NCBI GenBank assembly: GCA_963708135.1
Contig: OY970192.1
Span: 832,001-896,000, forward strand
Source: an uncultured Gemmatimonadales bacterium
Lineage (GTDB): Bacteria > Gemmatimonadota > Gemmatimonadetes > Longimicrobiales > RSA9
Direction: 5' to 3'
DNA length: 64,000 nt
Part shown: positions 1 through 16,122 of the stretch, piece after piece
Layout of the letters: each line of letters opens with the position of its first letter
Position numbering within the stretch: the first letter of the stretch is position 1
The notes under the pieces: generated by a model
Told to the model about the DNA's origin: nothing
The model's database searches: none
What the model saw: only the letters and a program-made list of their open reading frames with translations
Translations under genes and position numbers: made by a program

Positions 1-1073
1 AACCACACCGCGTGCCGGATCCGCTCCCCCAGGCTCTCCGCTGCCGGTGTCGAGGCCAGGGCATAGGCGTTGGCGTCCATCCCCTGCGGAAACTGGATGC
101 GATAACACCCGATTCCGTCCGCCGCGAGTTGCTCGGCCAGTGCGGCCGCCGCGCTCTCGCCCGCCGCGTCCCGGTCGTAGGCGATCAGCACGCGCTCGGT
201 GCCGTATCTGCGAAACGCCTCGTGATGCGCCGCCGTGAAGCCGCTCACCCCGTAGCTCGCCGTCACGTTCCGGTAGCCCGCGCACCAGAAGCTCAGCGCA
301 TCGAGCAGCGCCTCGCACAGGATGACCTCCTTCGACTCCGCCAGCGCCGCTTCGTTCCACACCCCCGCGTGCGCCCCCGGCAGGTAGAGGTGCAGCGGCG
401 TGCCTGCCCGCAGTCCCTCCGTGATCTTGCGACCGTACATCTCCCGCACCGCTTCATCGGCATCGATCACCGGCACCACCAGCGAGCCGGTGAAATGCTC
501 GTGTCCGCTCGGTCGCAGGATCCCCAGCCGCTGCAGCCGACTCCGGATCTCCGCTCCCGCCTTGAGCGCCTTCTTCGGCAGGTGGTAGCCCAGCGTCCGG
601 TTGGCGAAGCCCAGTTGGAAGCGGTCAATATCCGCCACCTGGGCGAGGCCCCGCTTCTCCAGGTAGGCGATGGCTTCCGGACTCTCCTTCAGCGTCTCGT
701 GGTAGTAGCCCACCACCTGCTGCAGCAGCGCCTGGTCATCGACGTCCGGCTCCAGCAGCGGCGGCAGTGCTCTGGCCTTTGCACTCGCGGCGGGCGCACC
801 CCGCAGGATCTCCACCGCGTGCCGGAAGCTCACCCCCTCGCGCCGCATCACCCAGTCGATCACGCTCCCGCCCGCCTGGCACGCGCCCAGGCAGTGCCAC
901 AGCCCTTTCGCCGGGCTCACCACCAGACTCGGCTCGTGGTCCTCGTGGAACGGACACAGCCCCAGCAGGTCCGCGCCGTGCCGCCGCAGCTTCACTCCGC
1001 TCCCCTCCACCAGCCCCACCAGGTCCGCCTCGCGCTTGAGCCGCTCCAACTCCTCCCTCTGGATCCGGGCCAT
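1..1073 (-). CDS. CHC2 zinc-finger/TOPRIM DNA primase-like protein of a mobile element (runs off window edge)
   Basis: Manual translation from ATG 1073 (GGAGGAGG/AGGAG upstream): MARIQREELERLKREADLV...GLCPFHEDHEPSLVV...WHCLGACQAGGSVIDWV...ILCEALLDALSFW...LIAYDRDAAG; not in ORF track because it is open at the edge. Confidence 0.85.
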   Translation of the reverse strand, partial: MARIQREELERLKREADLVGLVEGSGVKLRRHGADLLGLCPFHEDHEPSLVVSPAKGLWHCLGACQAGGSVIDWVMRREGVSFRHAVEILRGAPAASAKARALPPLLEPDVDDQALLQQVVGYYHETLKESPEAIAYLEKRGLAQVADIDRFQLGFANRTLGYHLPKKALKAGAEIRSRLQRLGILRPSGHEHFTGSLVVPVIDADEAVREMYGRKITEGLRAGTPLHLYLPGAHAGVWNEAALAESKEVILCEALLDALSFWCAGYRNVTASYGVSGFTAAHHEAFRRYGTERVLIAYDRDAAGESAAAALAEQLAADGIGCYRIQFPQGMDANAYALASTPAAESLGERIRHAVW

Positions 1074-1176
1074 GGCTCCTGCCTCCTCCGGAAATCCCGT
1101 CAATGGACCCTTGCGTCTCTTGTGGTATGGACTAATATGTCATCATCGCACCGGACGCAAGAGAGGAGGCCTTATC

Positions 1177-1563
1177 ATGATCGACCACGTGAAGCTCTAT
1201 CCCGAGGTCGATATGGAGCAGTTCCCGGAGACCCTCAAGCTGCTGAGGGAAAGCAGGGGTCTGACGCAGGCCCGGCTTGCCGAGTTGATCGAGGCCAGTC
1301 CGCGCGTCTACAATCGGTGGGAAACGGGCGCGGCGGCCCCGCGGCTAGACACTCTCGTGAAGATCGCTGACATCCTCAACGTCAGCCTGGACGAGCTCGT
1401 CGGGCGCACCGAGCCCAGTTCCGAGGTCGAGATCCAGAATCCCAGGCTCCACGCCCTCTACCGCCACATCGATCGGCTCTCCGACGAGGACCAGCAGGCC
1501 GTCATCATCCTTCTCGACTCTCTCGTCAAGCGGTCCCAGATGGACCAGATCCTCGCTTCCTGA
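1177..1563 (+). CDS. XRE-family HTH transcriptional regulator, divergent from primase
   Basis: LKLLRESRGLTQARLAELIEASPRVYNRWETG...P Cro/C1 HTH; GAGGAGG before ATG 1177 (alternative start 1213). Confidence 0.85.
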   Translation: MIDHVKLYPEVDMEQFPETLKLLRESRGLTQARLAELIEASPRVYNRWETGAAAPRLDTLVKIADILNVSLDELVGRTEPSSEVEIQNPRLHALYRHIDRLSDEDQQAVIILLDSLVKRSQMDQILAS

Positions 1564-1741
1564 CCAGCCACCGCCGCCCACGGGAACGAGCAGCTAAAGG
1601 AAGAAGCCCGGCCATCGCTGGTCGGGCTCTCCGGCTTCATGCCTGTGTCTCGGCACCGTTGCGGGCTCCGCTCCGGCGTGCCGGCCTCGCATTATGCGCC
1701 CTCGCCCTCGGCGCGCCTCCGCTCCGGGCGCTTCGCGCCTC

Positions 1742-1760
1742 TACATAACCGGGTTATGCA
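1742..1760. other. dif-like palindrome, candidate tyrosine-recombinase site
   Basis: TA-CATAACC-G-GGTTATG-CA; CATAA...TTATG arms as in dif but with a 5-bp rather than 6-bp centre. Confidence 0.4.
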
Positions 1761-1806
1761 AACCCGCTGCGGCAGATCTCGTTGACAAAACGCCATATTC
1801 ATTTGC

Positions 1807-2256
1807 TCATTCAGAGTTCAGCGGAGACTGACTGGCAACTTGCGTCGATTCCGAGAATTCCCATGCCTTAAAAGTAATCTCGATCCACGAGTAGCCCTCG
1901 CGGCGAAATGACGCTTTGTAGCTGGGCCCGGTCAGCCGTGAACGAACCAAGGCTCCAGCATCTTCGACTCGAAGGCAAGCGATTTCGCCGAAGCCCCAAC
2001 CAAGTGATGCCTCCTTCTGCATCACTGAGTCAGAGAGTTCGTTGATAACGTGCAGTTCACTCACGCCGCAGAAGCGGATTGACACAATACGCCGGTCAGC
2101 GTATTGGGTCCGAATCGTTCCATCCTCCTGCCACACGAAGTCAATGTCGATGCTGAGGGACGCGCCCCAGTTCAGCCACTGGACGCCGACAACAACACAC
2201 TCCTCGAAATCGCGGTACGCGTGAAGCTCTGCTCTCAATACAGGCAATCCGCTCAT
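1807..2256 (-). CDS. Putative immunity protein for toxin tip 1
   Basis: 149 aa, ATGA overlap with stop of upstream Rhs-CT ORF, visibly lower GC. Confidence 0.7.
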   Translation of the reverse strand: MSGLPVLRAELHAYRDFEECVVVGVQWLNWGASLSIDIDFVWQEDGTIRTQYADRRIVSIRFCGVSELHVINELSDSVMQKEASLGWGFGEIACLRVEDAGALVRSRLTGPSYKASFRREGYSWIEITFKAWEFSESTQVASQSPLNSE

Positions 2257-4205
2257 CGATTCCAGATGTTAAGATGCGTGGTCGCGTTGGGACCAGGGTT
2301 ACCCAGCGCGTCGAGATAGTTGCGAGCTGCATTCATGATGCGCAGTTGCCAACCATTTTCCCGCCGCATTAAGCGAACTTCTTCGCCCGTTCCATTCGTG
2401 AAAAGGTAGCCACTCTTATTCTCCGTCAGTCCCATCACAAACCCGTTCTCTTTCAGAATTGCGCGAATTCCAATGATCGACTCATCCGCAAGTCCGCCTC
2501 CCTCCGAGAACAGCGCGCGTAGCCCGGCGCTCGCTCCCCGTAGCCCCCGCCCGACGGCACCACCACCCACCGTGAATGCCGCCATTGCGAAGCCGCGTCC
2601 GGCGTGACCACTCCCGATATCGAAGCCAGCATCAAACGCTGCGGTGATCGGATTGACATCGTTGATCGCATTCAACCCAGCTGCGGCATTGAGCACCACG
2701 CCGCCCAGGCCACCGCCACGCTGCGCTCCCCAATTTGCCGCTTTCTGCAAGCAATCTTCAATCGGCGGGCACAATCCGAACGGGTCGGTATAAGACGCGG
2801 GGTTGTTGCCCGCATACGCATAGAGGTTAAGCCCGCCGGCAAATCCGATGGGGTCTTCCTGCGTGAACCTCCCCAATCTGGCGTCGTAGTAGCGGTTGCG
2901 GAAGAAGGCTCCGGTCTCCTGGTTCGAGTCGCCGTTGCGGGCGGGGGCGAAGCTGTAGCTTTCGCGGATGGCACCCGACTGCGAGCCCCAGGTACTCCAC
3001 GCCGGGAGCTCGTTTCCGTTCGTGTCCGTGATGCAGTTCTCGCCCTGCGGGCCCTGGAAGCTGAACAGTCGTTCGCGATGCGTGATGAAATATGCGCGCT
3101 TGTCGTTCAGGCTGCCGAGGGGACACGCAGCGTTGCCGTACATCATCAGCGGGTCGTCGAGCCCCGGCCCGTCCACGAACTCGACCGTCGAGTGCTCGAT
3201 CACGTTCTGACCATCGTAGAAGGTCTCCGCGCCGGAGTGGGCATAAGCGCCGCGGATCCGCCGGCCCAGGCCGTCGTAGCGGAAGAAGGCGGTATCGGGG
3301 TGAGTGCCGGAGAGCTGGCCGGCGGCGCTGTAGTAGCGGTGCCAGGTGTAGGCGGTCCCGGCGTAGGTGCCCTGCTCGAGCGTCTCGTTGCCGTTCGCGT
3401 CGTAGCTGAAGTCGACGCTCTCCGGACCGGAGACGCCGCTGTAGTAGCGGGTCCGGCGGGTCACCTCGTTCGAGAGGCCGTCGAGCTGGAAGAGCACGCT
3501 GTCGGCGCACAGGCTGCCGCGCACGCACAGGTACTCTTTCACGCGGTTGCCGGCCGCGTCGTAGACCATGCTGTCGGTCGAGGACGTCCCTCCAGGGTGG
3601 CTCTGACTCGTATAGCGGATGCGCCCGCTCCCGTCGTAGGCCCAGCGGTCCACCCAGGTCGCGTTATTGGTCTCGTTGCCGCGGTTGACGACCGAATCAG
3701 GCCGCCCAGCGGCGTCGTAGGCGAAGCTCAGGTCCACGGCGGTGTCACCGCTCGTGGCGTTGACGGAGATGACGCGCGCGATCTGCCCGTCTTTCGTGTA
3801 ACCGTAGCTCGTTTTCGTGGTGTTGGGCAGCCAGACCGTGTCGCGCCGCCCGAGCGCGTCGTAGTGGAACGAGATCATCTCGCCAGCGGGCGTCTGGATC
3901 TGGGAGACGAGCCCGCCCGGCCCGAGGGTGTAGGTGTACGTCCCCTTCGGCGTGCTCAGCGTATGGCGGCCCGCCCACTGATAGGCCGAGCTGTAGGTGC
4001 GCTGCGTGCCGGACCACTTGTGGAGCTGCGTGCTTGAGGCGAGGGTGCCTTCCTTGTTGAAGACCCGCGTGACCTGCGAGCTGTCCTCATCGAGCATGGT
4101 GACGTTACCGGCCGCGTCATACTGGAGGTTGATCGTCGTGCCGACCACGCCGAGGACGCCATTCTGGTAGGTGGATGAGAGGACGCGCTGCTTCGGGCGA
4201 TTCAC
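2253..4205 (-). CDS. 5'-truncated (orphan) Rhs core with toxin tip 1
   Basis: YD repeats, RYYD...GRFTQEDPIG...NPASYTDPFGL core end, unique C-terminus; no signal peptide; copy of the main Rhs. Confidence 0.8.
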   Translation of the reverse strand: MNRPKQRVLSSTYQNGVLGVVGTTINLQYDAAGNVTMLDEDSSQVTRVFNKEGTLASSTQLHKWSGTQRTYSSAYQWAGRHTLSTPKGTYTYTLGPGGLVSQIQTPAGEMISFHYDALGRRDTVWLPNTTKTSYGYTKDGQIARVISVNATSGDTAVDLSFAYDAAGRPDSVVNRGNETNNATWVDRWAYDGSGRIRYTSQSHPGGTSSTDSMVYDAAGNRVKEYLCVRGSLCADSVLFQLDGLSNEVTRRTRYYSGVSGPESVDFSYDANGNETLEQGTYAGTAYTWHRYYSAAGQLSGTHPDTAFFRYDGLGRRIRGAYAHSGAETFYDGQNVIEHSTVEFVDGPGLDDPLMMYGNAACPLGSLNDKRAYFITHRERLFSFQGPQGENCITDTNGNELPAWSTWGSQSGAIRESYSFAPARNGDSNQETGAFFRNRYYDARLGRFTQEDPIGFAGGLNLYAYAGNNPASYTDPFGLCPPIEDCLQKAANWGAQRGGGLGGVVLNAAAGLNAINDVNPITAAFDAGFDIGSGHAGRGFAMAAFTVGGGAVGRGLRGASAGLRALFSEGGGLADESIIGIRAILKENGFVMGLTENKSGYLFTNGTGEEVRLMRRENGWQLRIMNAARNYLDALGNPGPNATTHLNIWNR

Positions 4206-4207
4206 TC
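2844..4207. repeat. 1,364-bp near-identical copy of 9207-10570
   Basis: Constant offset 6363; only difference noticed is 3556 G vs 9919 T (YDAAG vs YDEAG). Confidence 0.9.
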
Positions 4208-4697
4208 AGGACGAGGTACGTCTCCTCCTCGAGCTGCTGGCGATGTACGACCGGCAGATCGCGGCCGTGGAGGAAGCGATGGTCTTCGCCCTCCGTCGGG
4301 CCCCGGAGGCGAAGGCGCTGATGTCGATCCCCAAGCTCGGCGCGGTCACCGCGGCTGTCTTCCTGGGTTCGATCGGCGATCCGAGGGCGTACGAGTCGAG
4401 CCGGCAGGCGCTCCGCGTGGGTGGCCTCTCATTGGTCGTGCAGGAGAGCGGGCTGCTCCGCGGCAAGCCGCGCCTCAGCAAGCGGGGCCGGCCCGAGATG
4501 CGACGGCAGGCGTACATGTTCGCGGCCGCAGCGTGATGAAGGGTGGGCTCTACCGGGAGGCGTTCGACCGCGCCCTGGCCGAGAACCCGCAGAAGCCGAA
4601 GAAGAAGATCCTGGTGGCCCTGGCGCGGCGCGCCACGAAGCTCATGTTCAGCGTCGCGCGGGACCGGAGGCTGTACACGCCGGATGGCCCGAAGTAG
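4208..4697 (+). pseudogene. IS110-family transposase C-terminal fragment, frameshifted near 4527-4536
   Basis: SIPKLGAVTAAVFLGSIGDPRAYESSRQ...ESG...LSKRGRPEMRRQAYMFA, then in another frame SVMKGGLYREAFDRALAENPQKPKKKILVALARRATKLMF...PK*. Confidence 0.9.
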
Positions 4698-4975
4698 GAT
4701 TCCGGCAGGTGAAAGAGCGGAAGGGCTGCGGCATCCTGCCGAGCCCTCCCGCGAGCACCAGACGCAGGCTGGAGAGTGGAGCCGGCAATCCATCGAAGGA
4801 GTTGCAGAAGCGCTCGGCGCCGCAGCTCGCTTCCGAATGCTGGAACGCTCCCTCCGGCCCAGAGCCCGCTCAAGTCTCCGAGGAAGGCGTGTCGAGGACC
4901 CTCCGGGGTGCCTCCAAGGAACTGAGGGTATCGAGCTACGCGAGCCCGAGCGGTCTGGGTGCGATTTGACAACTC
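4698..4975 (+). ncRNA. Bridge-RNA-like structured noncoding region, copy A
   Basis: Directly 3' of IS110 gene; blocks conserved with 7653-7949; closing stem GCACCAGAC(4755)/GTCTGGGTGC(4953); two internal-loop hairpins. Confidence 0.65.
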
Positions 4976-5028
4976 CGTATACTACCTGCCGAGACCCCGA
5001 CCGGGCGGTCGCGGCACCAGTGGCGCGT

Positions 5029-5215
5029 GCCCGGCGTGGACCCGCCATGTCCCTTGAGGCGGCGTTGCCGGCCTCCGATGGTGGACTCGGTCACGTCGGG
5101 CAGCGCGCTCTTTCACGTCAAACACCCACCGACAGCGCTGCCCGGCATGGGTCCGACAATCCGGTTGAGGCGCGTCCTGCGGCCTCCGATACCGGACTCG
5201 ATCATGCCGGGCAGC
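5029..5215 (+). repeat. Two 73-nt hairpin units with variable internal loops (A1 5029-5101, A2 5140-5212)
   Basis: Scaffold GCCCGGCRYGG..CCGA-N10-GAGG(hairpin)CCTC-N7-GGACTCGRTCRYGYCGGGC. Confidence 0.85.
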
Positions 5216-5220
5216 TTCGG

Positions 5221-5622
5221 CTACCGCCTGACCGGTTCACCGTCGATGCTTACGCCGCGGGCGATGACGACGAGCGACGCAGCATCATCGAAGTATAGGC
5301 GGTAGCGCGTGATTGGAGGGCGCGGCACTGTCTCGTGCCAACCCACTGAAGTGTTCCAACGAGCCTCCAGCTCTTGAATGTCGGCGGCAGCTGTCTCAGC
5401 CACGATGTAGTCCGGTCCGATGACGTCTTCTTCTACGCAGACGGCGCCCGCCGTGTATTCGACCCGAAGCACGTCGGAGAAGGTGACTTCGGTCCATTTC
5501 GTCTCTCCTTCTTCAGTAGTGTCGTACCGAACCGTTGCGAAGCCTTCGGACATGTTCACGACCGGACCAGCCAGCGTGTGACTGGTGCGGCGTGGCAGAT
5601 CAATCAAGGTCGTCATGTTCAC
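5221..5622 (-). CDS. Putative immunity protein for toxin tip 2
   Basis: 133 aa, GTGA overlap with tip 2 stop; lower GC. Confidence 0.7.
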   Translation of the reverse strand: MNMTTLIDLPRRTSHTLAGPVVNMSEGFATVRYDTTEEGETKWTEVTFSDVLRVEYTAGAVCVEEDVIGPDYIVAETAAADIQELEARWNTSVGWHETVPRPPITRYRLYFDDAASLVVIARGVSIDGEPVRR

Positions 5623-6124
5623 CTGATTACAGGGGTGAACGTCGGAGATGCAGAGCCCGCCATCTCAGCGAGGCGTTCCGTTAGCTGCCTCTCAAACATT
5701 GCATTGCCCGTAACATTGTTGATTACGGTCGGCCTCATGCCCGCGATCCTCAACGCCATCAGCGAGCGGTTGTTCATCGTGTACGACACGCCATCTCGAA
5801 CAACGACGTTTAGGGGCAGCTGACTTGGTGTGATCGCACCGCTTCTCAGGCCGGCCGCCACATCAGAGATCGACTGACCTGCAAACTCGCCGTGACGGAA
5901 GCTCGACGAAATACCCCTCTGGGCGAACTGTACCGCTCCCTCGTCAGCGGCTGCGGTGGCGACGCTGCGTCCGATCAGTGCTCGGATCCCGCCTGCGATG
6001 CCGCCTGCGAGAAACGCTACCGGATCTAGCAGACCAGGGCCACGGAGACCTGGTTCGTGTCCTGGACACCCCGTATGCCACTCAGTCTCCGGAGGGCACA
6101 ATCCGAAGGGATCGGTATAGGAGG
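5619..6124 (-). pseudogene. Orphan Rhs toxin tip 2, ParB/Srx-like toxin domain
   Basis: Begins SYTDPFGLCPP with no Rhs core; FAQRGISSSF...L..G.I.P.QLPL.V...G..Y..NNRSL.AL..AG resembles Tox-ParB-like domains. Confidence 0.75.
6112..6124. repeat. 13-bp direct repeat TCGGTATAGGAGG, left junction (partner 9148-9160)
   Basis: Exact match at both ends of the 3,036-bp unit. Confidence 0.85.
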
Positions 6125-6440
6125 GACGCCTCTAACCCAATGCGCCCCGATTCGGCCTCCGATCAGCCTACCTCCGACGCCACCTCCCGCCGTCTCAATC
6201 AGCCCTCCTGACACCCTCCCGAACAGCGAAACCCTTCACCATACCACCCGCAGCTCCACCGCCTCAGGCGGGGTCGACTGCCTTCCATTCACCCGGATTC
6301 CGCGCCCGATCCTGGCGGTGATACGGTTCCGGGTTCCGCCTCCGTCCCGGCGGCCCCGGCTCAGAGCGCCATAGAGCACGATTCCGCCATCGGTGCGGCC
6401 CACGGTACCGCTCTGGTCCACTTCAACCAGGAGCGAGACC

Positions 6441-7652
6441 ATGAGCCGTTTCGAGAAGCGCCGCCGGGCCCAGCGCGCCGCCGCCGTCGCCGGAGTGGAC
6501 GCGGGCAAGCGGAAGCACGCGATCGCGGTCCGGCCGCGCGGCGGCGAGGATAGCACGCCGCTCGAGTTCCAGACGACGCGAGCCGGCTTCGAGACCGCGG
6601 TCCGCGCGATCCTCGAGAACGCTCCGGGCACACGACCCGAGGACGTGCTGGTCGGCATTGAGTTCGCCGGCAACTACGGCTTCACCTTCGCCCACTTCCT
6701 GCGCGACCGCGGCTTCCAGGTCGTGAACGTGCTCGGCGCCCACAGCAAGCGCTGGAAGGAGGTGGTCCACAACCAGGGGCTGAAGAGCGACCCCAAGGAC
6801 GCGCTCACGATCACCGACATGGTGGCGCAGGGCGCCTTCGTCGGCTTCCCGTTCCTCGAGCAGGTCTACGCCGACCTGCGCTACCTGGTCAGCATGCGCG
6901 AGCGGCTGACGAAGCTCCGGAGCGCGACGATCGCGCGGCTGAAGGACGTGCTCCAGGTCGTCTGGCCGGAGTTCGAGCGGCGCTTCAAGAACTTCAGCAA
7001 GAAGACGCCGATCGCGATCCTGGAGGCGTTCCCCGGGCCGGATGCGTTCCTGCGCGCACCGAAGCGGCGCGTGCTGAAGGTGATCCGGGAGGCGAGCCGG
7101 GGTCATCTGGGCGAGGCCGCCTACGAGCACCTGCGGTGCGCGGCCGAGGACACCGTGGCGCTCCCCGGCGCGCAGGGCGTGCTTGCGCAGGAGGTCGGCC
7201 TCCAGCTCGATCTGCTCGCGTCCTACGAGCGCCAGATCGCCGAGGTCGAGCGCCTCATGGCCGAGCGGCTGGTGGACGCGCCGGAGGCGCCCTCGCTCCT
7301 CTCGGTGCCGAAGCTCGGCGCCGTGACGGCCGCCGTGTTCCTCGGCTCGATCGGCGACCCGCGGGCCTACGACTCGAGCCGGCAGGCGCTCAAGGTCGGC
7401 GGCCTCGGGCTCGTCGTGAGCGAGAGCGGCGCCCAGCGCGGCCGGCCCGAGCTCCGGCGCCAGATGTACATGTTCGCGGTGCGGAGCGTGAGCCGGGGCG
7501 GCCTGTTCCGGGCGGAATACGAGCGGGCGCTCGAGCGCAATCCGAACACGCCGAAGAAGAAGGTGCTGGTCGCGCTCGCGCGGAAGGCGACGCGGCTCAT
7601 GTTCGCGCTCGCGAAGGAGCGGCGGCTGTACACGATGGAACCGCCGCGGTAG
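6441..7652 (+). CDS. IS110-family DEDD transposase/recombinase
   Basis: GVDAGK, GIEFAG, KSDPKDA (DEDD), SVPKLG HhH, ESG serine loop, KKKVLVALARK; AGGAG before ATG 6441. Confidence 0.93.
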   Translation: MSRFEKRRRAQRAAAVAGVDAGKRKHAIAVRPRGGEDSTPLEFQTTRAGFETAVRAILENAPGTRPEDVLVGIEFAGNYGFTFAHFLRDRGFQVVNVLGAHSKRWKEVVHNQGLKSDPKDALTITDMVAQGAFVGFPFLEQVYADLRYLVSMRERLTKLRSATIARLKDVLQVVWPEFERRFKNFSKKTPIAILEAFPGPDAFLRAPKRRVLKVIREASRGHLGEAAYEHLRCAAEDTVALPGAQGVLAQEVGLQLDLLASYERQIAEVERLMAERLVDAPEAPSLLSVPKLGAVTAAVFLGSIGDPRAYDSSRQALKVGGLGLVVSESGAQRGRPELRRQMYMFAVRSVSRGGLFRAEYERALERNPNTPKKKVLVALARKATRLMFALAKERRLYTMEPPR

Positions 7653-7949
7653 GTTGGGGGAATCAACACCATGGGAGGGCCGGCTGGCGCGGTGCGCGCC
7701 GGCCCTCCTACAGTGCACCAGACGCAGGCCGGGGGATGGAGCAGAAGAATCCATCGAAGGGGCCGTCTCGCACGAACGTGAGGCCTGCTTCCCAAGGTCG
7801 GACCCGCTCCCCCTGACCCAGAGTTCGCCACAGTCTCCGAGGAAGGCGTGTCGAGGGCCACGCGCGGCAGACGCCGCCACGGTGCCTCCGAGGACTTGAG
7901 GGTATCGAGCTACGCGATCTCGAGTGGTCTGGGTGCGATTTGACAACTC
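7653..7949 (+). ncRNA. Bridge-RNA-like structured noncoding region, copy B
   Basis: Closing stem GCACCAGAC(7715)/GTCTGGGTGC(7927); conserved AATCCATCGAAGG and AGTCTCCGAGGAAGGCGTGTCGAGG with variable-length hairpins. Confidence 0.65.
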
Positions 7950-8006
7950 AGCGCTTGCCTTCGCCGTCGCGGCGTCGAGCCGGCCGCGACGGAACGGGTG
8001 GCGTGT

Positions 8007-8293
8007 GCCCGGCGCGGATCCGACATCCAGCCTGAGGCGGCCCAGCCGGTCTCCCATGATGGACCTGATCGCGTCGGGTACGCTCTTCCTCATGGGCATC
8101 GGCGCCGGCATGGATCCGAGAACCCGGACGAGGCGCGTTCTGCGGCCTCCCATGTGGGACTCGGTCGTGCCGGGCCGCACCTCCCCGCCGGGCTGGCCAA
8201 CGGGGAGGTGAGCGGAACGGGGCCGGTGTGGATCCGATAATCCGGTCGAGGGGTCACGGACCGCCTCCAACATCGGACTCGATCGCACCGGCC
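8007..8293 (+). repeat. Three 73-nt hairpin units (B1 8007-8079, B2 8103-8175, B3 8221-8293)
   Basis: Same scaffold as A1/A2 with compensatory stem changes and distinct loops. Confidence 0.85.
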
Positions 8294-8670
8294 TATTTCT
8301 TTCGCCGCATCGATTCCTCTGTTTGGCTACAGACCGCGGTCATCGCTGGCCCCATGTACGACCGGGCAGTTTTCATCCAGTCCGAATTGTCGGTTAGCCT
8401 CTCGCAAACGCTGAATGCGGCAATCTCCTGCACCTTCGGATCCGGATGGGCGGCCAGTATTTCGAGGGAGTCGAAGACTCTCCGAATCTCGGCCCCGTCA
8501 TTCCGCTCGATCGCGGCGATAAGATGCGGGGTGAGCAGATCACCATAGATGATGTGAGGGCCGGGACGTTCAGTGCCCCACCATTCCAGTTCTTTTTCGT
8601 ACTTTTCCCTCAACTCTGGTATGCTGGTGATCAAGTGATCCACAACAGTCTCGTATTTGATCTCTGTCAT
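8293..8670 (-). CDS. Putative immunity protein for toxin tip 3
   Basis: 125 aa, TGATG coupling to Rhs stop, lower GC. Confidence 0.75.
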   Translation of the reverse strand: MTEIKYETVVDHLITSIPELREKYEKELEWWGTERPGPHIIYGDLLTPHLIAAIERNDGAEIRRVFDSLEILAAHPDPKVQEIAAFSVCERLTDNSDWMKTARSYMGPAMTAVCSQTEESMRRKK

Positions 8671-11600
8671 CAGTGCCCTCGAAGTGCATTCTGGAGGTCC
8701 GTAAGAACTCGCTGGGCGGTTGTTCGGTCGGCAGCGCTGAGCTCCTCCTGCTGAAGAATTCGTTGAAGCTGACGGGCACGCTGTTGGCCCTTGAGAAGAT
8801 GCGACCGGCCTCCCACGAGTTCACCGGTCCGTAGCTCCTCCCTGATTGCTCCAGCGGTCCCGCCAGGTAGCTTGTCGCCCGCACGGAACAGTTGCTCGAT
8901 GGCGCCTTGGAGGCGTGCGTTAGCGGCTGCCGGGATCTCATTCGCGAAGGCCCCGTACTGACGAATACGATTTGCATTTCGCAGTCCCTCAACAAGACCC
9001 CCTCCCACTGCTCCGAGGGCGGCGTCTGTGATTCCCTGGGAGAGTGTATAGTCCCCCCCGAGCGCTTTCGTGATAAGGTAACCCTCGGCGACACCTACAA
9101 CGGCACCTGCGGCGATTTCAAAGCAGATCGGGCAGAGTCCAAACGGGTCGGTATAGGAGGCCGGATTATCCCCGTTGTAGCTGTAGAGGTTGAGCCCGCC
9201 CGCAAGTCCGATGGGGTCTTCCTGCGTGAACCTCCCCAATCTGGCGTCGTAGTAGCGGTTGCGGAAGAAGGCTCCGGTCTCCTGGTTCGAGTCGCCGTTG
9301 CGGGCGGGGGCGAAGCTGTAGCTTTCGCGGATGGCACCCGACTGCGAGCCCCAGGTACTCCACGCCGGGAGCTCGTTTCCGTTCGTGTCCGTGATGCAGT
9401 TCTCGCCCTGCGGGCCCTGGAAGCTGAACAGTCGTTCGCGATGCGTGATGAAATATGCGCGCTTGTCGTTCAGGCTGCCGAGGGGACACGCAGCGTTGCC
9501 GTACATCATCAGCGGGTCGTCGAGCCCCGGCCCGTCCACGAACTCGACCGTCGAGTGCTCGATCACGTTCTGACCATCGTAGAAGGTCTCCGCGCCGGAG
9601 TGGGCATAAGCGCCGCGGATCCGCCGGCCCAGGCCGTCGTAGCGGAAGAAGGCGGTATCGGGGTGAGTGCCGGAGAGCTGGCCGGCGGCGCTGTAGTAGC
9701 GGTGCCAGGTGTAGGCGGTCCCGGCGTAGGTGCCCTGCTCGAGCGTCTCGTTGCCGTTCGCGTCGTAGCTGAAGTCGACGCTCTCCGGACCGGAGACGCC
9801 GCTGTAGTAGCGGGTCCGGCGGGTCACCTCGTTCGAGAGGCCGTCGAGCTGGAAGAGCACGCTGTCGGCGCACAGGCTGCCGCGCACGCACAGGTACTCT
9901 TTCACGCGGTTGCCGGCCTCGTCGTAGACCATGCTGTCGGTCGAGGACGTCCCTCCAGGGTGGCTCTGACTCGTATAGCGGATGCGCCCGCTCCCGTCGT
10001 AGGCCCAGCGGTCCACCCAGGTCGCGTTATTGGTCTCGTTGCCGCGGTTGACGACCGAATCAGGCCGCCCAGCGGCGTCGTAGGCGAAGCTCAGGTCCAC
10101 GGCGGTGTCACCGCTCGTGGCGTTGACGGAGATGACGCGCGCGATCTGCCCGTCTTTCGTGTAACCGTAGCTCGTTTTCGTGGTGTTGGGCAGCCAGACC
10201 GTGTCGCGCCGCCCGAGCGCGTCGTAGTGGAACGAGATCATCTCGCCAGCGGGCGTCTGGATCTGGGAGACGAGCCCGCCCGGCCCGAGGGTGTAGGTGT
10301 ACGTCCCCTTCGGCGTGCTCAGCGTATGGCGGCCCGCCCACTGATAGGCCGAGCTGTAGGTGCGCTGCGTGCCGGACCACTTGTGGAGCTGCGTGCTTGA
10401 GGCGAGGGTGCCTTCCTTGTTGAAGACCCGCGTGACCTGCGAGCTGTCCTCATCGAGCATGGTGACGTTACCGGCCGCGTCATACTGGAGGTTGATCGTC
10501 GTGCCGACCACGCCGAGGACGCCATTCTGGTAGGTGGATGAGAGGACGCGCTGCTTCGGGCGATTCACTCCGTCGTACTGGATCGCGACGGTGCTGCTGT
10601 CGCGGTTCCTGCGGAGCGTCAGGTTGCCGGCGAGGTCGTAGGCATGGAACTCCGTTGCTCCCATCCCATCGATCATCGCGGTATCCTCGCCCAGCGCGTT
10701 GTAGTGCCAGCTGCGGGAAAAGGTCATGCGCGGGTCGACAGCCGTTGTCCGGTCGCCATCCGCGTCGTACGTGAAGTGGCTCGCACGTCTGTAGACGCCG
10801 TCGTAGTGATCCACCTCGGTGAGATTCCCCAAGGCGTCATGCACGTAGGTCAAACTGTCGCCAACGGGATTGGTCACCCGCCGAACCTGGCCGTTGGCGT
10901 CGTACGCGTAGCTCGTGGTGTGACCCTCGGGCGTGGTGCTCGAGAGCAGGTTGCCAGCATTGGAATCGTCGTTGGCGAGGATGGTGCTGAGATCCTGCAC
11001 GGTATCGCCGTAGACAGGTACCGACTGCTCGGTCACGCTCGCGACCTGGCCGCGCGAGTTGTAGGTGAAGCTGGTCTCGTGACCACGCGGGTCGATGACA
11101 TTGTCGAGCGTCCCGTCCGTGGAGCTGTAGTTGAAGGTGGTCGTGTCTCGGGTCGCGCCCGAGCGCGGTGCGATGACCTTCCACGGTTTGTCGGGTGCGG
11201 CGGTCGAGTAGAGGTAGACTGTGGAATCCGCGCCCGCGCTGGATGTGAGGTCCGCGGCGTTCCGAACGCGGCCGACGACGTCGTACGCAGTGGTGGTCTG
11301 GCGGCCGTTCGGCCAATCGACCTCCTTCGGCAGCAGCGGGAAGTTGGAGTCGTACGTCAGCACGGTGGTGTTGCCCACGGCGTCGATGATCCTCGTCGGT
11401 GCCCCGAAGCGGTCGAGGTAGAACTTCGTGATCTGAATGGTGTGGGTGCGCGGTCCCCGCACCTCGAAGTCCGCGCTTGCCGCGGCGTAGGTGTCGTTCA
11501 GCCCGGTCGCGGTCGTTGCGAGGCCGAGAGTCTGGAGAGGAGTGAACGTTGTCACGGGTGTGCCGGCGCTGACCGTCGGCAGCGTGTCGGCCGCGAGCAG

Positions 11601-13796
11601 CGCGGTCTCGCCCGTATACGAGTACTTCGTCGCATGGCCAAGGCGTGAGGTCCAGCGCGTCAGCAGGTGAGCGGCGTAGGCAAGCACGATCGCGGAGTCG
11701 GGGCGGTCCGGAAGGTAGAAGTCGGTCAGATCGCCCGAGCCGTTGACGGTGATGTTCATGGCGCGCGAAGCAGGGTCGGTGACCGCGCTCAGCTTCGCGT
11801 TCGGGCTGCCGTAGGCGAAGGTGTAGACCCTGCTCTGGTCCCAGGGTGCGATGCGGATCTGGGAGACCCCACTGCCCGCCCCGCCCGTGTAGCTGTACTG
11901 CACCTTGTTCGAAACGCGATCCTGGACCCAGGTCTCCTGGCCGGCCGTGTTGAAGTAGAGCTGGGTGCCGTCGAGCAGCCGCCGGCGGTAATGGGTCGTC
12001 GAGCTCCCGCTCGGATCGACCGCTGTCTCGTAGAAGATGGTGTCGCGGTGCGCACCGACGGGGGCGAGGTAGGCGCTGCCGCCGATGGCGTCGTAGACGG
12101 CCGTGCTGCCGTCCCCGTCGACGAGCAGGACCGCGGTTCCGGATCGCTGGTTCGGGTAGAGCTCTTCGACACCCGCGATGCCCCAGCCGGCCCCGTAAGG
12201 ACCCGCGGAGCGATTCACGACGATCAGGTCGCCGCTCGCCGCCGTCTCGCAGGTGGCACAGATCGTGTCGCTGTAGACATCGGCCACCGTCAACGTGAAG
12301 GTGTGCAGGCCCGTCGTGACGCCGGCGGCCGCCGCGTCGAACCCGACCGCGATCCGACGGGCGTTGCCGCCAGGGGCAATGCGAAGGTCGTTGAACCAAC
12401 GCACGGCCCGCGTGACGCCATCGACGACGAGGGTGGCCTTAAGGCTGTCGGGCACGCGGATGCCCAGGTCGAGCGCGACATTCGCGAGCACGATCGGATA
12501 CGGCTTTGCCGTTCCGCTCGTGTAGAGCAGCGTGAGGGCGCGGTCGCGGTTCATGGTCCGGTAGGCCGGCATCCCCTGTGCGACGAGCAGCTCACCGCAT
12601 TGCGAGGCGCCGGCCGGTCCCGCGCCGACCGTGACGCACGAGGAGCGGGGCATGAGCGAACCGGGGTTGATCGCGGCGTTGACCTCGATCGGGCCCTCGG
12701 GGGCCGTGGGGTTCCCCACCGTGACGTTGTAGGAGCCGCTGTCGCTGCCGCCGGTCCCGGTGGCGGTGAGCGTGATGGTCCCGTAGCCGGCCGAGGCGGC
12801 CGAGAACCTGACGGTCACGGAGCTCGCGCCGTTCGCTCCCACCGTTACGGATGGATCGACCGAACAGTAGGTCACCTGACCGGTGAACCCGCACGCGAGC
12901 GTGTAGGTCAGAGGGGAGCCGTTCGGATTCGAGACGGTGAAGAACGCGCCATTGCCAGACGTGTTGGCGTTTACCGTCAGGCTGCCACTGTCTGGCGTCA
13001 CGGATGGAGGCAGGGTGCCCGATGGATTCACCGTGAACGTCACGGCCACGCTCTGCGGCGAGTTGTCGGCGTTCGCATCGGAGACGCTCACGCTGCCGGT
13101 GTAGGTTCCGGTGGCGAGCGTGCCGGTATGGGCCGTGACGCTGACGCTGCCGTTGCCGGTTCCAGATCCCGGGCTCACGCTCAACCAGGATGCTCCCGGT
13201 GAAGCCGTCCAGTCGAGCGTGCCGCCGCCCGAGTTGGTGACGCTCACGCTCTGTGGTGCCGGATCCGCTCCGCCCTGCGACGCGCTGAACGAGAGGCTCG
13301 TCGGACTCAGGACGATGTGCGGCGTCGTCGTCTGGAGATTGACATAGCAGTTCGTGTATTCGGCAGGTGGCGGGCTGTTCGGCAGGCTCGGCGCTGGCGA
13401 CGCGCCCTGGTTGGCGACGCTGAGCGTGACGTAGCCGTTGCTCGGGCTGGACCCGACGGCGTAGGTGATCGTCACGTCGGCGGCGCTGCCCGCCGCGATC
13501 GTGATCGAGCTCTGTACGGAGCAGGACGTAACGGGCGCCACGAACGAGCATCCGAGGTCGTACGTCGTCGTGGGGTTGTTCTTGTTGTCGAGGTGGAAGA
13601 TGGCGCCGTTTCCGCTGCTGTTGGGCGCGACCGTCATGGGCGAGTTCGTCGCCGAGACGGTCGGGAGTCCCGTCCCCGTCTCGGGGCCACCAACCGCGTG
13701 CGCTGGCTGGCCGACGAGCGCCGCGATGGCGCCGAGGGTGAGGATGCGAGCTGCGGAACGAGCGGCAGCTCGAATGGAAGGCCGCGTTCTGGGCAT
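8670..13796 (-). CDS. Full-length Rhs/YD-repeat polymorphic toxin with signal peptide and BACON/Ig-like N-terminal domains
   Basis: N-terminal basic+hydrophobic segment ending AHA; SPTSLSF...WLSVSP BACON-like; YD repeats; QEDPIG...DNPASYTDPFGL; variable C-terminal tip. Confidence 0.92.
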   Translation of the reverse strand: MPRTRPSIRAAARSAARILTLGAIAALVGQPAHAVGGPETGTGLPTVSATNSPMTVAPNSSGNGAIFHLDNKNNPTTTYDLGCSFVAPVTSCSVQSSITIAAGSAADVTITYAVGSSPSNGYVTLSVANQGASPAPSLPNSPPPAEYTNCYVNLQTTTPHIVLSPTSLSFSASQGGADPAPQSVSVTNSGGGTLDWTASPGASWLSVSPGSGTGNGSVSVTAHTGTLATGTYTGSVSVSDANADNSPQSVAVTFTVNPSGTLPPSVTPDSGSLTVNANTSGNGAFFTVSNPNGSPLTYTLACGFTGQVTYCSVDPSVTVGANGASSVTVRFSAASAGYGTITLTATGTGGSDSGSYNVTVGNPTAPEGPIEVNAAINPGSLMPRSSCVTVGAGPAGASQCGELLVAQGMPAYRTMNRDRALTLLYTSGTAKPYPIVLANVALDLGIRVPDSLKATLVVDGVTRAVRWFNDLRIAPGGNARRIAVGFDAAAAGVTTGLHTFTLTVADVYSDTICATCETAASGDLIVVNRSAGPYGAGWGIAGVEELYPNQRSGTAVLLVDGDGSTAVYDAIGGSAYLAPVGAHRDTIFYETAVDPSGSSTTHYRRRLLDGTQLYFNTAGQETWVQDRVSNKVQYSYTGGAGSGVSQIRIAPWDQSRVYTFAYGSPNAKLSAVTDPASRAMNITVNGSGDLTDFYLPDRPDSAIVLAYAAHLLTRWTSRLGHATKYSYTGETALLAADTLPTVSAGTPVTTFTPLQTLGLATTATGLNDTYAAASADFEVRGPRTHTIQITKFYLDRFGAPTRIIDAVGNTTVLTYDSNFPLLPKEVDWPNGRQTTTAYDVVGRVRNAADLTSSAGADSTVYLYSTAAPDKPWKVIAPRSGATRDTTTFNYSSTDGTLDNVIDPRGHETSFTYNSRGQVASVTEQSVPVYGDTVQDLSTILANDDSNAGNLLSSTTPEGHTTSYAYDANGQVRRVTNPVGDSLTYVHDALGNLTEVDHYDGVYRRASHFTYDADGDRTTAVDPRMTFSRSWHYNALGEDTAMIDGMGATEFHAYDLAGNLTLRRNRDSSTVAIQYDGVNRPKQRVLSSTYQNGVLGVVGTTINLQYDAAGNVTMLDEDSSQVTRVFNKEGTLASSTQLHKWSGTQRTYSSAYQWAGRHTLSTPKGTYTYTLGPGGLVSQIQTPAGEMISFHYDALGRRDTVWLPNTTKTSYGYTKDGQIARVISVNATSGDTAVDLSFAYDAAGRPDSVVNRGNETNNATWVDRWAYDGSGRIRYTSQSHPGGTSSTDSMVYDEAGNRVKEYLCVRGSLCADSVLFQLDGLSNEVTRRTRYYSGVSGPESVDFSYDANGNETLEQGTYAGTAYTWHRYYSAAGQLSGTHPDTAFFRYDGLGRRIRGAYAHSGAETFYDGQNVIEHSTVEFVDGPGLDDPLMMYGNAACPLGSLNDKRAYFITHRERLFSFQGPQGENCITDTNGNELPAWSTWGSQSGAIRESYSFAPARNGDSNQETGAFFRNRYYDARLGRFTQEDPIGLAGGLNLYSYNGDNPASYTDPFGLCPICFEIAAGAVVGVAEGYLITKALGGDYTLSQGITDAALGAVGGGLVEGLRNANRIRQYGAFANEIPAAANARLQGAIEQLFRAGDKLPGGTAGAIREELRTGELVGGRSHLLKGQQRARQLQRILQQEELSAADRTTAQRVLTDLQNALRGH
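9148..9160. repeat. 13-bp direct repeat, right junction inside rhs (A-S-Y-T-D codons)
   Basis: TCGGTATAGGAGG identical to 6112-6124. Confidence 0.85.
9207..10570. repeat. Source copy of the 1,364-bp Rhs duplication
   Basis: Matches 2844-4207. Confidence 0.9.
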
Positions 13797-13864
13797 GATG
13801 GCGCTCCCTGCTCGAGGGAATCCCGGAGCCCCGATGCCGGTGCTCCGTGGAGTGGGGCACCATC

Positions 13865-14758
13865 CTATCTATCGCGTTCGGAGAGGCCGTCGAGGTTCCA
13901 ACGTCCCGATCGGAGGTTCCAACGTACCCGTTCACGGGCAGGATCGCCGGTGGTGGCCGGCCGGGGCGCGGCGGGACGGGCATGGAGCTCCAGCCAGCGG
14001 TCAGCCAGCGCCCGCGGGTCCAGGCCGGCCCGGATCTCGGACACGGACAGCTGCAGCCGGCGGCGCAGCGATTTGCCGAGCGCCGCCGCGTCCGAGAAGC
14101 CGGCCAGGAAGGCCGCGTCCCCGGTTCTCGCGCCACGAGCGATCGAGTTGGCCGCCGGAAGCAGCCGAAACAGGAACTGGCACTGCTCCACGGTCGGGAG
14201 ACCGGCGTCGCGAACCTGGCGGAAGAGGGCGTTCCGACTGACGTGGAGCCGCGCGGCCAGCTCGGCCGGGCTCCACCGTGCGGCGTCGCTTTCCGCCAGC
14301 AGCCGGAGGAACTGGAGAACCACCACGTCCCGGATGGCCAGGGCACGGATGACGCGGCTCGCGACGATTTCCGGCGCGCCGCGGAGGAGGTCACGAATGT
14401 CGCCGCCCAGCTCGGGTCCCGGGAAGAGGAGGCGGACGCCGAACCGGGCGAGCGGGTAGACGCGCCGGACCATCTCCGGCGTCAGGTCGCCGAGGTAGGC
14501 CGCCGTCGGCACGAGCAGGCCCCGTCGGTGGAGGACGGCGATCGTGCGGCGGCCCGGGTCATCGAGCAGCACGGCCGCAAAGACGAACGCGGCCGGCGGA
14601 GCGCGGGACGTGAGGGTCCCGACCACCGCGCCCCAGCTGCCGGCGGATGCGATCGTGGCCGCCCGTCCCGCCGCTTCGTCCACGTCGCGGAACGCAGTCC
14701 CGCCGCTGATGGCCAGGACGAGGATCTCGAGAGGGTGGCGCCGCGCGTTTCCGCCCAT
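13865..14758 (-). CDS. AraC-family transcriptional regulator
   Basis: C-terminal ELAARLHVSRNALFRQ...AAFLAGFSDAAALGKSLRR double HTH; start uncertain. Confidence 0.75.
   Translation of the reverse strand: MGGNARRHPLEILVLAISGGTAFRDVDEAAGRAATIASAGSWGAVVGTLTSRAPPAAFVFAAVLLDDPGRRTIAVLHRRGLLVPTAAYLGDLTPEMVRRVYPLARFGVRLLFPGPELGGDIRDLLRGAPEIVASRVIRALAIRDVVVLQFLRLLAESDAARWSPAELAARLHVSRNALFRQVRDAGLPTVEQCQFLFRLLPAANSIARGARTGDAAFLAGFSDAAALGKSLRRRLQLSVSEIRAGLDPRALADRWLELHARPAAPRPATTGDPARERVRWNLRSGRWNLDGLSERDR
13892..13925. promoter_or_regulatory. 13-bp direct repeat at 21-bp period upstream of rhs, candidate AraC-type operator
   Basis: GAGGTTCCAACGT at 13892 and 13913. Confidence 0.5.
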
Positions 14759-15072
14759 GTCATTCCGGCGGTGTGGCGGGAGAGTGTTCGATGCCGACCG
14801 GCGCCCATCGGGCTCGTGGGGAGAGTCGCCGTTGTCTGGCTGGAAGGAGTGGCGAGGGAGTGCGAGCCGGATCGTCGCTGAGCTGCCGGAGGAGCGACAA
14901 GCCAATGGTATGTTGCGTCCAGCCGCCGTCTGACGCAGCCCCGGTTCCGTGACAGAGTTGTCAGAATCGAGTCAAGCTCTGGTTGGCACACGGCTCTGTG
15001 CACAGAACTGCACGGACATTTTCCGCGGGGCCGCCCCTGGCCCGTCCGGCGCCGGCGCCTTACCGTTTGTCC

Positions 15073-16122
15073 ATGAACCCCCCTAGCGCCGTCCGTTGGG
15101 CCGCGGATTCTCGCGCGGTCGAGGTGCTGGACCAGACCCGCCTGCCGGAGGCCGAGGTCTGGCTGCGGCTGGGGTCAGCGGCCGAGGTGGCGGAGGCGAT
15201 CCGGCGGCTGCGCGTCCGCGGCGCCCCCGCCATCGGCATCGCGGCGGCGCGCGGCCTCGCCCTGGAGCTGGCGCTCGCGACGTCGCTCGAGCCGGCGGCG
15301 TTCGATGCCCGGCTCGCCGAGACCGCCGCCACGCTGAAAGGCGCCCGCCCGACCGCGGTGAACCTGGCGTGGGCGGTGGACCGGCTGTGCGCGGTGGCGG
15401 CGGAGCACCGGGGGAAGGGACCGGGGGGCGTCGCCTGCAAGGTGTGGGGCGAGGCGGACCGGATCGCGGCGGAGGACGCGGCAATGTGCCGCGCCATCGG
15501 CGAGCACGCGCTCGGGCTGTTCCCGGAGCCCGACGGGCGGCCGCTCGAGGTGCTCACGCACTGCAACGCGGGGGCGCTGGCGACGGGCGGGATCGGCACG
15601 GCGCTGGCCGGCGTCTACCTGGCGGCGGAGCGGGGGCGCTCTGTGCACGTGTGGGTGGACGAGACGCGGCCGCTGCTCCAGGGGAGCCGGCTCACCGCGT
15701 GGGAGCTGGGCCGGGCGGGCATCCCGGCCACGGTCATCGTGGACTCGGTGGCGGCGTCGCTCATGGCGGCGGGGAAGGTGGACCTCGTGATCACGGGCGC
15801 GGACCGCATCGCGGCCAACGGCGACGCGGCGAACAAGATCGGGACCTACGCGCTGGCGGTGCTCGCGCGCCACCACGCGGTCCCGTTCTACGTGGCGGCG
15901 CCGAGCAGCACCGTGGATCCGGCCACGCCGACGGGGGCGGCGATCCCGATCGAGGAGCGCGGGGCGGACGAGGTGCGGCGCGGGTTCGGGCGGCTCACCG
16001 CGCCGGCGACGGTGCCCGTCTTCGCGCCGGCGTTCGACGTCACGCCGGCGGCGCTGATCGCCGCGATCGTGACGGACCGCGGCGTGCTGCGGCCGCCGTA
16101 CCGGTTCGGGGGAGGCGGTTGA
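15073..16122 (+). CDS. mtnA: S-methyl-5-thioribose-1-phosphate isomerase
   Basis: LDQTRLP, VRGAPAIG, RPTAVNL, THCNAGALAT, DETRPLLQG, ANKIGTY. Confidence 0.95.
   Translation: MNPPSAVRWAADSRAVEVLDQTRLPEAEVWLRLGSAAEVAEAIRRLRVRGAPAIGIAAARGLALELALATSLEPAAFDARLAETAATLKGARPTAVNLAWAVDRLCAVAAEHRGKGPGGVACKVWGEADRIAAEDAAMCRAIGEHALGLFPEPDGRPLEVLTHCNAGALATGGIGTALAGVYLAAERGRSVHVWVDETRPLLQGSRLTAWELGRAGIPATVIVDSVAASLMAAGKVDLVITGADRIAANGDAANKIGTYALAVLARHHAVPFYVAAPSSTVDPATPTGAAIPIEERGADEVRRGFGRLTAPATVPVFAPAFDVTPAALIAAIVTDRGVLRPPYRFGGGG

Follow-up and report, generated by a model that had tools for sequence, protein, structure and literature searches.

A candidate RNA-guided IS110/IS1111-like element at the core/tip junction of an rhs locus in Gemmatimonadota

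Introduction

What supplies an Rhs protein with a new C-terminal tip, and what stacks displaced tips into the orphan arrays that lie behind the main gene? To our knowledge, tip gain and orphan arrays in polymorphic toxins (Rhs, CdiA, and others) have been explained mostly by homologous recombination, with no dedicated machine. The question is raised by an rhs locus of an uncultured Gemmatimonadales soil bacterium (GenBank assembly GCA_963708135.1; 5.45 Mb, 72% G+C) that lies in a stretch of 64,000 nucleotides, hereafter the window, covering positions 832001 to 896000 of contig OY970192.1 (contig C1 of G000, our label for the genome under study). Here the gene for an IS110/IS1111-family transposase stands antisense between the current tip of the main rhs gene and an orphan tip, and both tips start with the same 13 bp. 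An earlier note, made from the sequence alone, proposed that this element delivers a tip and its immunity gene in frame into rhs, the start of the tip serving as the element's own end; that proposal is supported by counts of how often the arrangement recurs in related loci and by one complete unit present at two junctions with different flanks. We consider it very likely that the elements make up a clade of IS110/IS1111 elements that is specialized on the Rhs core/tip junction and structures orphan arrays, and we regard it as probable, with less assurance, that the window holds a cargo-bearing, RNA-guided member that swaps Rhs tips.

Results

The sequence TCGGTATAGGAGG occurs exactly at positions 6112 to 6124 and again at 9148 to 9160, and on the minus strand both copies read (A)SYTD followed by PFGL or PFGLC, as the earlier note had it. 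The first copy supplies the first codons of orphan tip 2 and adjoins the left end of the element, and the second supplies the junction codons between the Rhs core and tip 1 and is the proposed right end of the composite element; an imperfect third copy lies at 2763 to 2795 (repeat family D9). A motif scan found 11 Rhs core/tip junctions in the genome, 7 of them preceded by a recognizable core end, and the repeat is, judging from these, conserved coding sequence of the core/tip junction. This coding conservation across the 11 junctions rules out the repeat as a chance match, a target duplication, a transposition footprint, or a product of insertion. The segment from 6125 to 9160 measures 3036 bp, which is divisible by 3, and codon phase is the same in the 1708-aa Rhs open reading frame (8670 to 13796) and in tip 2 (Y codon at 6119); therefore, deletion of the segment would give ...GDNPA followed by SYTDPFGLCPPE in frame, as the earlier note had it. 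Tip 2 itself (5619 to 6124, minus strand) was said to retain no core beyond the repeat, and a reading-frame check agrees, finding stop codons and no Rhs core in the frame upstream of it.

The unit that recurs consists of a left end, the transposase gene, a noncoding region, 74-nt hairpins, an antisense immunity-like gene, and an antisense tip, and five copies of it are present in the rhs locus of G000. Three of the insertion sequence (IS) copies in this locus are full (A, in the window, and B and C) and two are truncated, all antisense to rhs. Upstream of the window lie B (94.6% identical to A), C (73%), and another fragment, each accompanied by hairpins and an antisense gene pair. The left end sits directly on a coreless tip start in 3 of 3 full copies (SYTDPFGL, VYTDPFGL, and SYTDPFGS). 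A transposase element at genome positions 813575 to 815014, accompanied by a 9-bp duplication (tccgcccgg), interrupts the leader of copy B; from its protein motifs, it is presumably of the IS256 type.

A search of 61 related genomes, together with a single scan each of genome and metagenome contigs, yielded 34 further loci (labeled L0xx individually), from other Gemmatimonadota genomes and from metagenomes, with transposases 45 to 84% identical to the window copy. Architecture was counted by script over these and the G000 locus, as the survey of homologs proposed in the earlier note, and among relatives of 50 to 84% identity the outcome was the one foreseen there, with figures that overstate independence in that L014 to L018, L026/L028/L041/L044, and L031/L032/L034 are groups of kin. 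A coreless minus-strand tip start precedes the transposase start by 60 to 1200 bp in 28 of 35 evaluable copies (missing at copy B, with its IS256 insertion, at L023, at two copies in L038, and at L044, L048, and L049). A hairpin unit follows within 900 bp of the transposase in 26 of 29 (the misses being L014, L023, and L046), and the antisense gene pair with a further minus-strand tip start 500 to 1900 bp past the last hairpin was found in 16/16; 7 of these tip starts stand behind a core-end motif, and 9 adjoin the left end of the next unit. The outcome named as fatal to the proposal, elements that end near 7950 and sit in unrelated contexts, appeared only in L023, the most distant relative (45% identity), which has neither tips nor hairpins.

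In the stacks that we read closely (G000, L026, L028, and L041), core-end sequence is present only next to the core and the units otherwise adjoin one another directly. The IS lineages in the G000 stack differ from unit to unit (94%, 73%, about 70%, and 67% identity), and a diverged lineage for each unit fits arrival together with cargo and not spread within the genome. At 1330 and 3019 in L015, tip starts adjoin left-end-like sequence (GACATTCC... and GACACATC...) with no transposase or hairpin following; by their sequence these are probably decayed or deleted units.

The boundaries of the unit are delimited by a pair of metagenome contigs, which gave the strongest individual result of the analysis. 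Positions 2935 to 6175 of L026 and 4286 to 7527 of L028 are 98.7% identical over 3242 bp, spanning left end, transposase, hairpins, immunity-like gene, and tip, and the flanks are unrelated on both sides. Identity starts exactly at the left-end GACGCC and stops about 10 nt past the junction on its core side. The left flanks are two different tips; on the right, L028 continues into a full Rhs core and L026 into a short remnant of a core end. The empty sites reconstructed from the two loci would both be in-frame core-tip junctions (read by eye). The pair bears, as far as its sequence tells, the marks of one unit that was set into two separate junctions. A minimal IS has about 1.0 to 1.6 kb and no passenger genes; the 3.2-kb shared unit has an immunity-like gene and a tip.

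The transposase (6441 to 7652, plus strand; 403 aa, apparently intact) matches PF01548 (E = 9.6e-24) in its N-terminal DEDD/RuvC-like domain and PF02371 (E = 3.6e-10) in its C-terminal transposase domain. In a profile search it matched IS621 (8wt6) over both domains with an E value of 2.8e-23; single-sequence phmmer against PDB sequences gave no match. Residues D20, E74, D117, D120, and S329 are invariant among 8 aligned transposases and align with the IS621 motifs GiD, iEatG, KTDxxDA, and SG, and we take them to be the catalytic residues of the family. From its sequence, the protein looks active, and it belongs to the RNA-guided family.

The left end, which begins GACGCCTCTAAC, a motif kept at the junction in relatives, opens a 316-nt noncoding leader (6125 to 6440, plus strand). 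It starts 3 to 9 nt (mostly 5) past the Y codon of xYxDPxG and is always antisense to rhs, and these positions agree with the site- and orientation-specific insertion, lacking long target duplication, of IS110/IS1111-type elements. As in IS1111-type elements, there is a long noncoding region 3' of the transposase (7653 to 8296) that is kept across genomes; the leader is present in addition to it. Its part before the hairpins (7653 to 8008, plus strand) was defined from an alignment of 13 copies and has blastn matches in 7 related loci; the conserved blocks end in GCGATTTGACAAC (7935 to 7947), and a variable spacer follows. The start of the left end resembles inverted tip-start codons in some lineages (8/8 nt in L017), inconsistently over 16 elements.

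Three 74-nt hairpin units follow (8009 to 8082, 8105 to 8178, and 8223 to 8296, plus strand; repeat family D2). A profile built from the five units in the window gave 13 matches in the genome, 11 of them with E values below 1e-10 and all on the plus strand between 809 and 841 kb; elsewhere in the 5.4-Mb genome the best match reached only E = 3.8. We also considered REP/BIME elements, an identity ruled out by the confinement of the hairpins to the rhs locus instead of dispersal through intergenic regions. The units fold as stem, internal loop, and stem, with compensatory changes at 9 of 18 pairs (17 units from six genomes), and single units fold somewhat better than shuffled sequences (z of -0.7 to -2.8).

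In the orientation of the transposase, the internal loop carries on its 5' strand the reverse complement of the codons that close the core (G-D-N-P and similar). For the last window unit (8223 to 8296), the codons matched in this way are those of the core end at 9161 to 9170. The 5' loop changes along with the core end, with GATAATCCGG in the window and L012, GGCGACCCGGT in L016/L017, GGGGATCCGG in L013/L033, and ATAATCCGAT in L036. In a permutation test over 13 elements, the summed match between loop and core end was 108, compared with 88.4 ± 4.7 after permutation, and 1 of 20000 permutations reached 108, a figure inflated by the relatedness of the elements. An unbiased scan of leader, noncoding region, and hairpins against four target and end sequences on both strands comprised 24 combinations of region, target, and strand, and a single combination gave a signal, that of the hairpins with the reverse-complemented core end (own mean 8.0, cross mean 6.3).

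The core end that matches the loop lies beyond the cargo and never beside the hairpins. If the loop is the guide, the match at 9161 to 9170 therefore places the functional right border at the tip start. The hairpins agree with the published description of seekRNAs in place, size, and polarity, and by their sequence the array itself is the most likely guide-like RNA. The 5' loops of the first two window units (8009 to 8178) read GACATCCAGCC and GAGAACCCGG, unlike the main core end; they may address other core-end alleles or the donor. In L015/L016/L017, at about 7710 to 7745, a perfect GC-rich stem-loop of about 12 bp stands after the last guide-like hairpin and just before the cargo.

The remaining parts of the locus fall into place around this unit, and the contents listed in the earlier note (IS110 transposase, hairpin array, immunity gene, and current tip) are there. 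In the direction of rhs (minus strand), the series opens with the Rhs core and continues with tip 1, immunity-like gene 1, three hairpins, and noncoding region; then come the antisense transposase, left end, tip 2, immunity-like gene 2, and two hairpins; and finally the 3' part of a second IS copy joined to a mid-core fragment, tip 3, and immunity-like gene 3. The locus has the features of an Rhs/YD-repeat system: RHS repeats, a conserved core end with a DPxGL junction, a variable tip, and a downstream immunity-like gene. The core of the main gene (9161 to 13796, minus strand; PF05593 with E = 2.8e-24, and PF19190) was delimited from its translation and, behind a signal-like N terminus, BACON_2, and RHS repeats, ends ...YNGDNPA at the junction. 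The signal-like sequence and BACON_2 lie within 13300 to 13796 (minus strand), and the domain scan of the Rhs protein matched no PAAR or VgrG-type domain.

Tip 1 (8670 to 9160, minus strand), the current C-terminal putative toxin domain, has a G+C fraction of 0.61, compared with 0.72 for the genome, and had no match in a Pfam scan. The start of immunity-like gene 1 (8293 to 8670, minus strand; DUF7674, PF24722 with E = 2.8e-17) overlaps the rhs stop codon. Immunity-like gene 2 (5221 to 5622, minus strand), called as an open reading frame, was likewise unmatched by the Pfam scan; another genome has a relative of the tip 2 domain (60% identity) as the fused end of a full Rhs core. One orphan tip matches Ntox10 with an E value of 3e-45 and is a predicted toxin. 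Tips and immunity-like genes between 1807 and 9160 have 54 to 61% G+C, compared with 71% for the transposase and 72% for the genome.

Two more hairpin units (5031 to 5215, plus strand), identified from repeat families and the hairpin profile, form part of an older, truncated unit, beside which lies a second, diverged IS copy of which the 3' part is left (4206 to 4975, plus strand; about 70% identical; families D3, D8, D11, and D17; PF02371). Next comes a fragment of Rhs core with tip 3 (2253 to 4205, minus strand; 98.5% identical to 9129 to 10570). The sequence looks as if this second copy was cut at 4205/4206 and joined to the middle of the core by an illegitimate deletion. We considered site-specific events for this joint and for the one at genome position 827040, and rejected them in favor of illegitimate deletions, as the joints have at most a few bases of microhomology.

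Tip 3 also belongs to an 8.1-kb segment that occurs twice at 98% identity, once at window positions 1 to 4199 together with genome positions 828096 to 832000 and once at genome positions 817914 to 826017 (L002). The segment carries tip 3, immunity-like gene 3, a helix-turn-helix gene, a primase-like gene (Zn-ribbon and Toprim), and a tyrosine integrase gene, and it is bordered by copies of the last 101 to 105 bp of the Rhs core that are 76 to 93% identical to one another. By its sequence, the segment looks like another island, this one based on an integrase, that likewise brings a tip and an immunity gene to the rhs junction. A second rhs locus of the genome, L003 (genome positions 2777141 to 2795634, plus strand), encodes a 1532-aa Rhs protein and has two more core-end junctions and one coreless junction upstream; about 8 kb downstream lies a decayed, internally deleted, antisense copy of the window IS that has no hairpins.

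Discussion

The arrangement in the window can be accounted for by an exchange of the following kind. The mobile unit would comprise the left end (6125), the transposase, the noncoding region, the hairpins, the antisense immunity gene, and the antisense tip, and its right end would lie inside the tip's own first codons (xYxDPxG). We infer a circular form that bears the junction of tip start and left end, guidance by RNA, and a direction of events in which the transposase would recombine the circle junction with the junction of tip start and core end in an rhs gene. The hairpin RNA would guide this step at least in part, its 5' loop pairing with the core-end codons; the left halves of the two sites would be alike, both being conserved junction codons, and the right halves would be exchanged. 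The core would thereby be fused in frame to the incoming tip, with the new immunity gene next to it, and the old tip and immunity gene would be pushed downstream, behind the IS. The products, old tip start against left end and new tip start against core end, would correspond to the state seen at 6124/6125 and 9160/9161.

Repeated insertions would build head-to-tail stacks, that is, an orphan array, and the exchange run backward would remove a unit, so that the core is armed again by the tip that comes next. The exchange scheme therefore predicts head-to-tail stacks with core-end sequence only next to the core, which holds in G000, L026, L028, and L041. Cargo would, in addition, be redistributed with respect to the IS, probably through homologous recombination at copies of the IS with its hairpins and at conserved core ends. 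The wider proposition, that Rhs orphan arrays are built by a dedicated vehicle, namely a clade of RNA-guided IS1111-like elements, with a toxin domain and immunity gene as cargo, the toxin's first codons as right end, and a hairpin guide that reads the core end, we hold to be slightly better than evenly balanced.

Several observations weigh against this scheme. A TTGACA-like box closes the noncoding region before the hairpins, as if the end of the IS or a junction promoter lay there; a scan for sigma-70 promoters and terminators between 5900 and 9300 found nothing, and for that reason a junction promoter formed by this box and a TATAAC-like box in the left end is only a guess. The search of the element ends turned up neither a shared core dinucleotide nor clear subterminal inverted repeats of 11 to 13 bp, the best inverted match of the left end falling at inconsistent places among 16 elements. 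No second guide (a match to the bottom strand) was detected, and exact-match scans on both strands gave no signal of own over cross matches when leader, noncoding region, and hairpins were compared with the left flank, with the right end of the element, and with the start of its left end; the k-mers listed for such a guide in the first element were just 7- to 8-mers at chance level. In the minimum-energy fold of the G000 units the guide is partly paired inside the hairpin, and an Rfam scan of positions 1 to 16000 with E values up to 1 returned no family. Identity of a whole unit in different flanks comes from a single pair of metagenome contigs, the kinship of the counted loci has been described above, and no circle junction, empty site, or polymorphism came to light in the assembled contigs examined, where three public runs with part of the stretch (Logan contigs) gave fragmentary pieces whose joints reflect paralogous units.

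A further set of observations bears on what the mobile unit is. Copies A and B are alike at 94%, L026/L028 and L041 are alike at 96% over IS and hairpins with a break exactly at the end of the last hairpin, and the L014 to L018 group is alike at 91 to 95%, and in all three comparisons the cargo is unrelated. The IS with its hairpins could be the real mobile unit, or cargo turnover could be frequent. The earlier note needs correcting on this point: cargo is, by these comparisons, often exchanged relative to the IS. It is possible, but in our estimate unlikely, that the conserved and mobile unit is only the left end, transposase, and hairpins (about 2.0 to 2.2 kb), resident in rhs orphan arrays, and that tip and immunity cassettes are exchanged by homologous recombination with the core end and the IS-hairpin module as homology arms. 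Near-identical modules beside unrelated cargo and unrelated left-hand tips (A/B, L026/L028 versus L041, and L014 to L018) are what such a scaffold would leave, and the conserved TTGACA box at the close of the noncoding region also speaks for it. However, the core end that matches the loop is never beside the hairpins and always beyond the cargo, and simple insertion of the module at a junction would part the core from any tip, an arrangement seen in 0 of the 16 copies evaluable there. Moreover, L026 and L028 have both cargo and IS in common with different flanks on both sides, the IS differs in lineage from one G000 unit to the next, and full copies are confined to rhs loci.

Less probable again, and in our view improbable, is a domesticated recombinase that does not spread between genomes and acts as a host switch, deleting the unit between two junction sites so that the core is joined to the next stored tip, a programmed change of tips much like that of a shufflon or integron. 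This would explain why the junction sites are direct repeats whose deletion gives an in-frame fusion, why the hairpin guide addresses the host's own core end, and why IS copies are found only in rhs loci; it does not sit well with IS lineages that differ by up to 33% within one stack, with one unit in different contexts in different samples (L026/L028), or with the common truncated and decayed copies, which are as in selfish elements. The proposal is in part an overlap with the excision half of the exchange scheme. Finally, that unrelated IS110 copies landed by chance in an ordinary rhs orphan array, the repeat and hairpins having no functional link to them, is highly improbable, for although IS elements are common in rhs loci and coding conservation accounts for the 13-bp repeat, the junction position, orientation, hairpins, and order of cargo recur in 34 other loci and the hairpin loop covaries with the core end.

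If the exchange scheme is right, the C-terminal displacement of polymorphic toxins would have a machine of its own, an element that ends at the start of a toxin domain and whose guide addresses the core end. It would amount to a natural, programmable, in-frame exchange of protein domains, in which RNA-guided IS110/IS1111 recombinases are used in nature for precise in-frame protein fusions, with natural pairs of guide and target inside coding sequence. The known cargo of such elements would be widened from resistance genes to weapons of interbacterial competition.

Comparison with known systems

The literature returned by four topic searches contained no paper linking IS110/IS1111 elements with Rhs tips. 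The remark in the earlier note that it knew of no description of such a system stands for the Rhs-tip case in the literature searched and falls for cargo in general, cargo-bearing IS110 elements being the subject of a 2026 preprint, though not with Rhs tips in its main text. What we did not find described is a target inside a toxin gene, a right end that is coding, in-frame fusion, and a matching guide; cargo on IS110-family elements is already known.

As far as the consulted portions of the papers go, the nearest relatives are IS1111 elements with seekRNAs (ISEc11, ISPa11, and ISKpn4; Siddiquee et al. 2024, PMC11187229), which have a DEDD transposase with a long noncoding region downstream, a seekRNA of 70 to 100 nt encoded downstream of the transposase with the complement of the top strand in its 5' part, and site- and orientation-specific insertion, and in which cargo between the IS ends can be moved. 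The window element shares the DEDD transposase, the downstream noncoding region, and the specificity for site and orientation. Unlike these elements as described there, it has its target inside a protein-coding gene at a domain junction and about 0.9 kb of cargo between the hairpins and a presumed right end that is coding; a second (bottom-strand) match and clear subterminal inverted repeats of 11 to 13 bp were not found in it. In IS621/IS110 (Durrant et al. 2024, PMC11208160; structures 8wt6 and 9t56), the sections seen describe a bridge RNA upstream of the transposase with two loops, each of which guides to both strands, and a shared core dinucleotide. Common to both are a homologous two-domain recombinase (profile E = 2.8e-23), an RNA guide with internal loops (putative here), and recombination of a circular donor with a target, which we propose for the window element; unlike in that account of IS621, the guide-like hairpins here are downstream of the transposase and one guide segment was found.

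In the available text on ISPpu9 (Pares-Guillen et al. 2025, PMC12288879), a separable ssr9 RNA module lies downstream of the transposase and circles carry varied combinations of modules. This is again an IS110-family element with an RNA module 3' of the transposase; unlike the window element, it targets REP sequences and is described there as free of protein cargo and gene fusion. Closest in the matter of cargo are the IS110 loci of Hu et al. (bioRxiv 10.64898/2026.08.14.744561), which in the main text exceed 2 kb and grow to 100 kb with cargo, with matches to half-sites, stacking in tandem, and further insertions into loci that are already occupied. The window element resembles them as a cargo-bearing, stacking member of the IS110 family. 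Their cargo is mostly plasmid derived, with resistance genes, the main text contains neither "rhs" nor "toxin," and, unlike for the window element, it describes no in-frame fusion to a host gene.

Outside this family, the window resembles integrons in having cassettes stacked at one site with hairpins at their borders. In integrons, promoterless cassettes bordered by elements that form hairpins are stacked beside a conserved platform for expression. Their recombinase, unlike ours, is a tyrosine integrase, one per array, and their cassettes make no in-frame fusion with a host protein. The work of Jackson in 2009, Poole in 2011, Koskiniemi in 2014, and Kirchberger in 2017 is said to describe orphan toxin-immunity cassettes in Rhs and contact-dependent inhibition (CDI) systems and C-terminal displacement by homologous recombination. 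As with those classical orphans, displaced tips and immunity genes lie downstream of the main rhs gene here and new tips replace old ones at a conserved junction. In contrast to the classical model, in which an orphan needs homology to the core, the orphans behind the IS are coreless, starting 3 to 9 nt (mostly 5) upstream of the Y codon of the junction, and each unit brings a recombinase gene and a matching guide-like RNA of its own.

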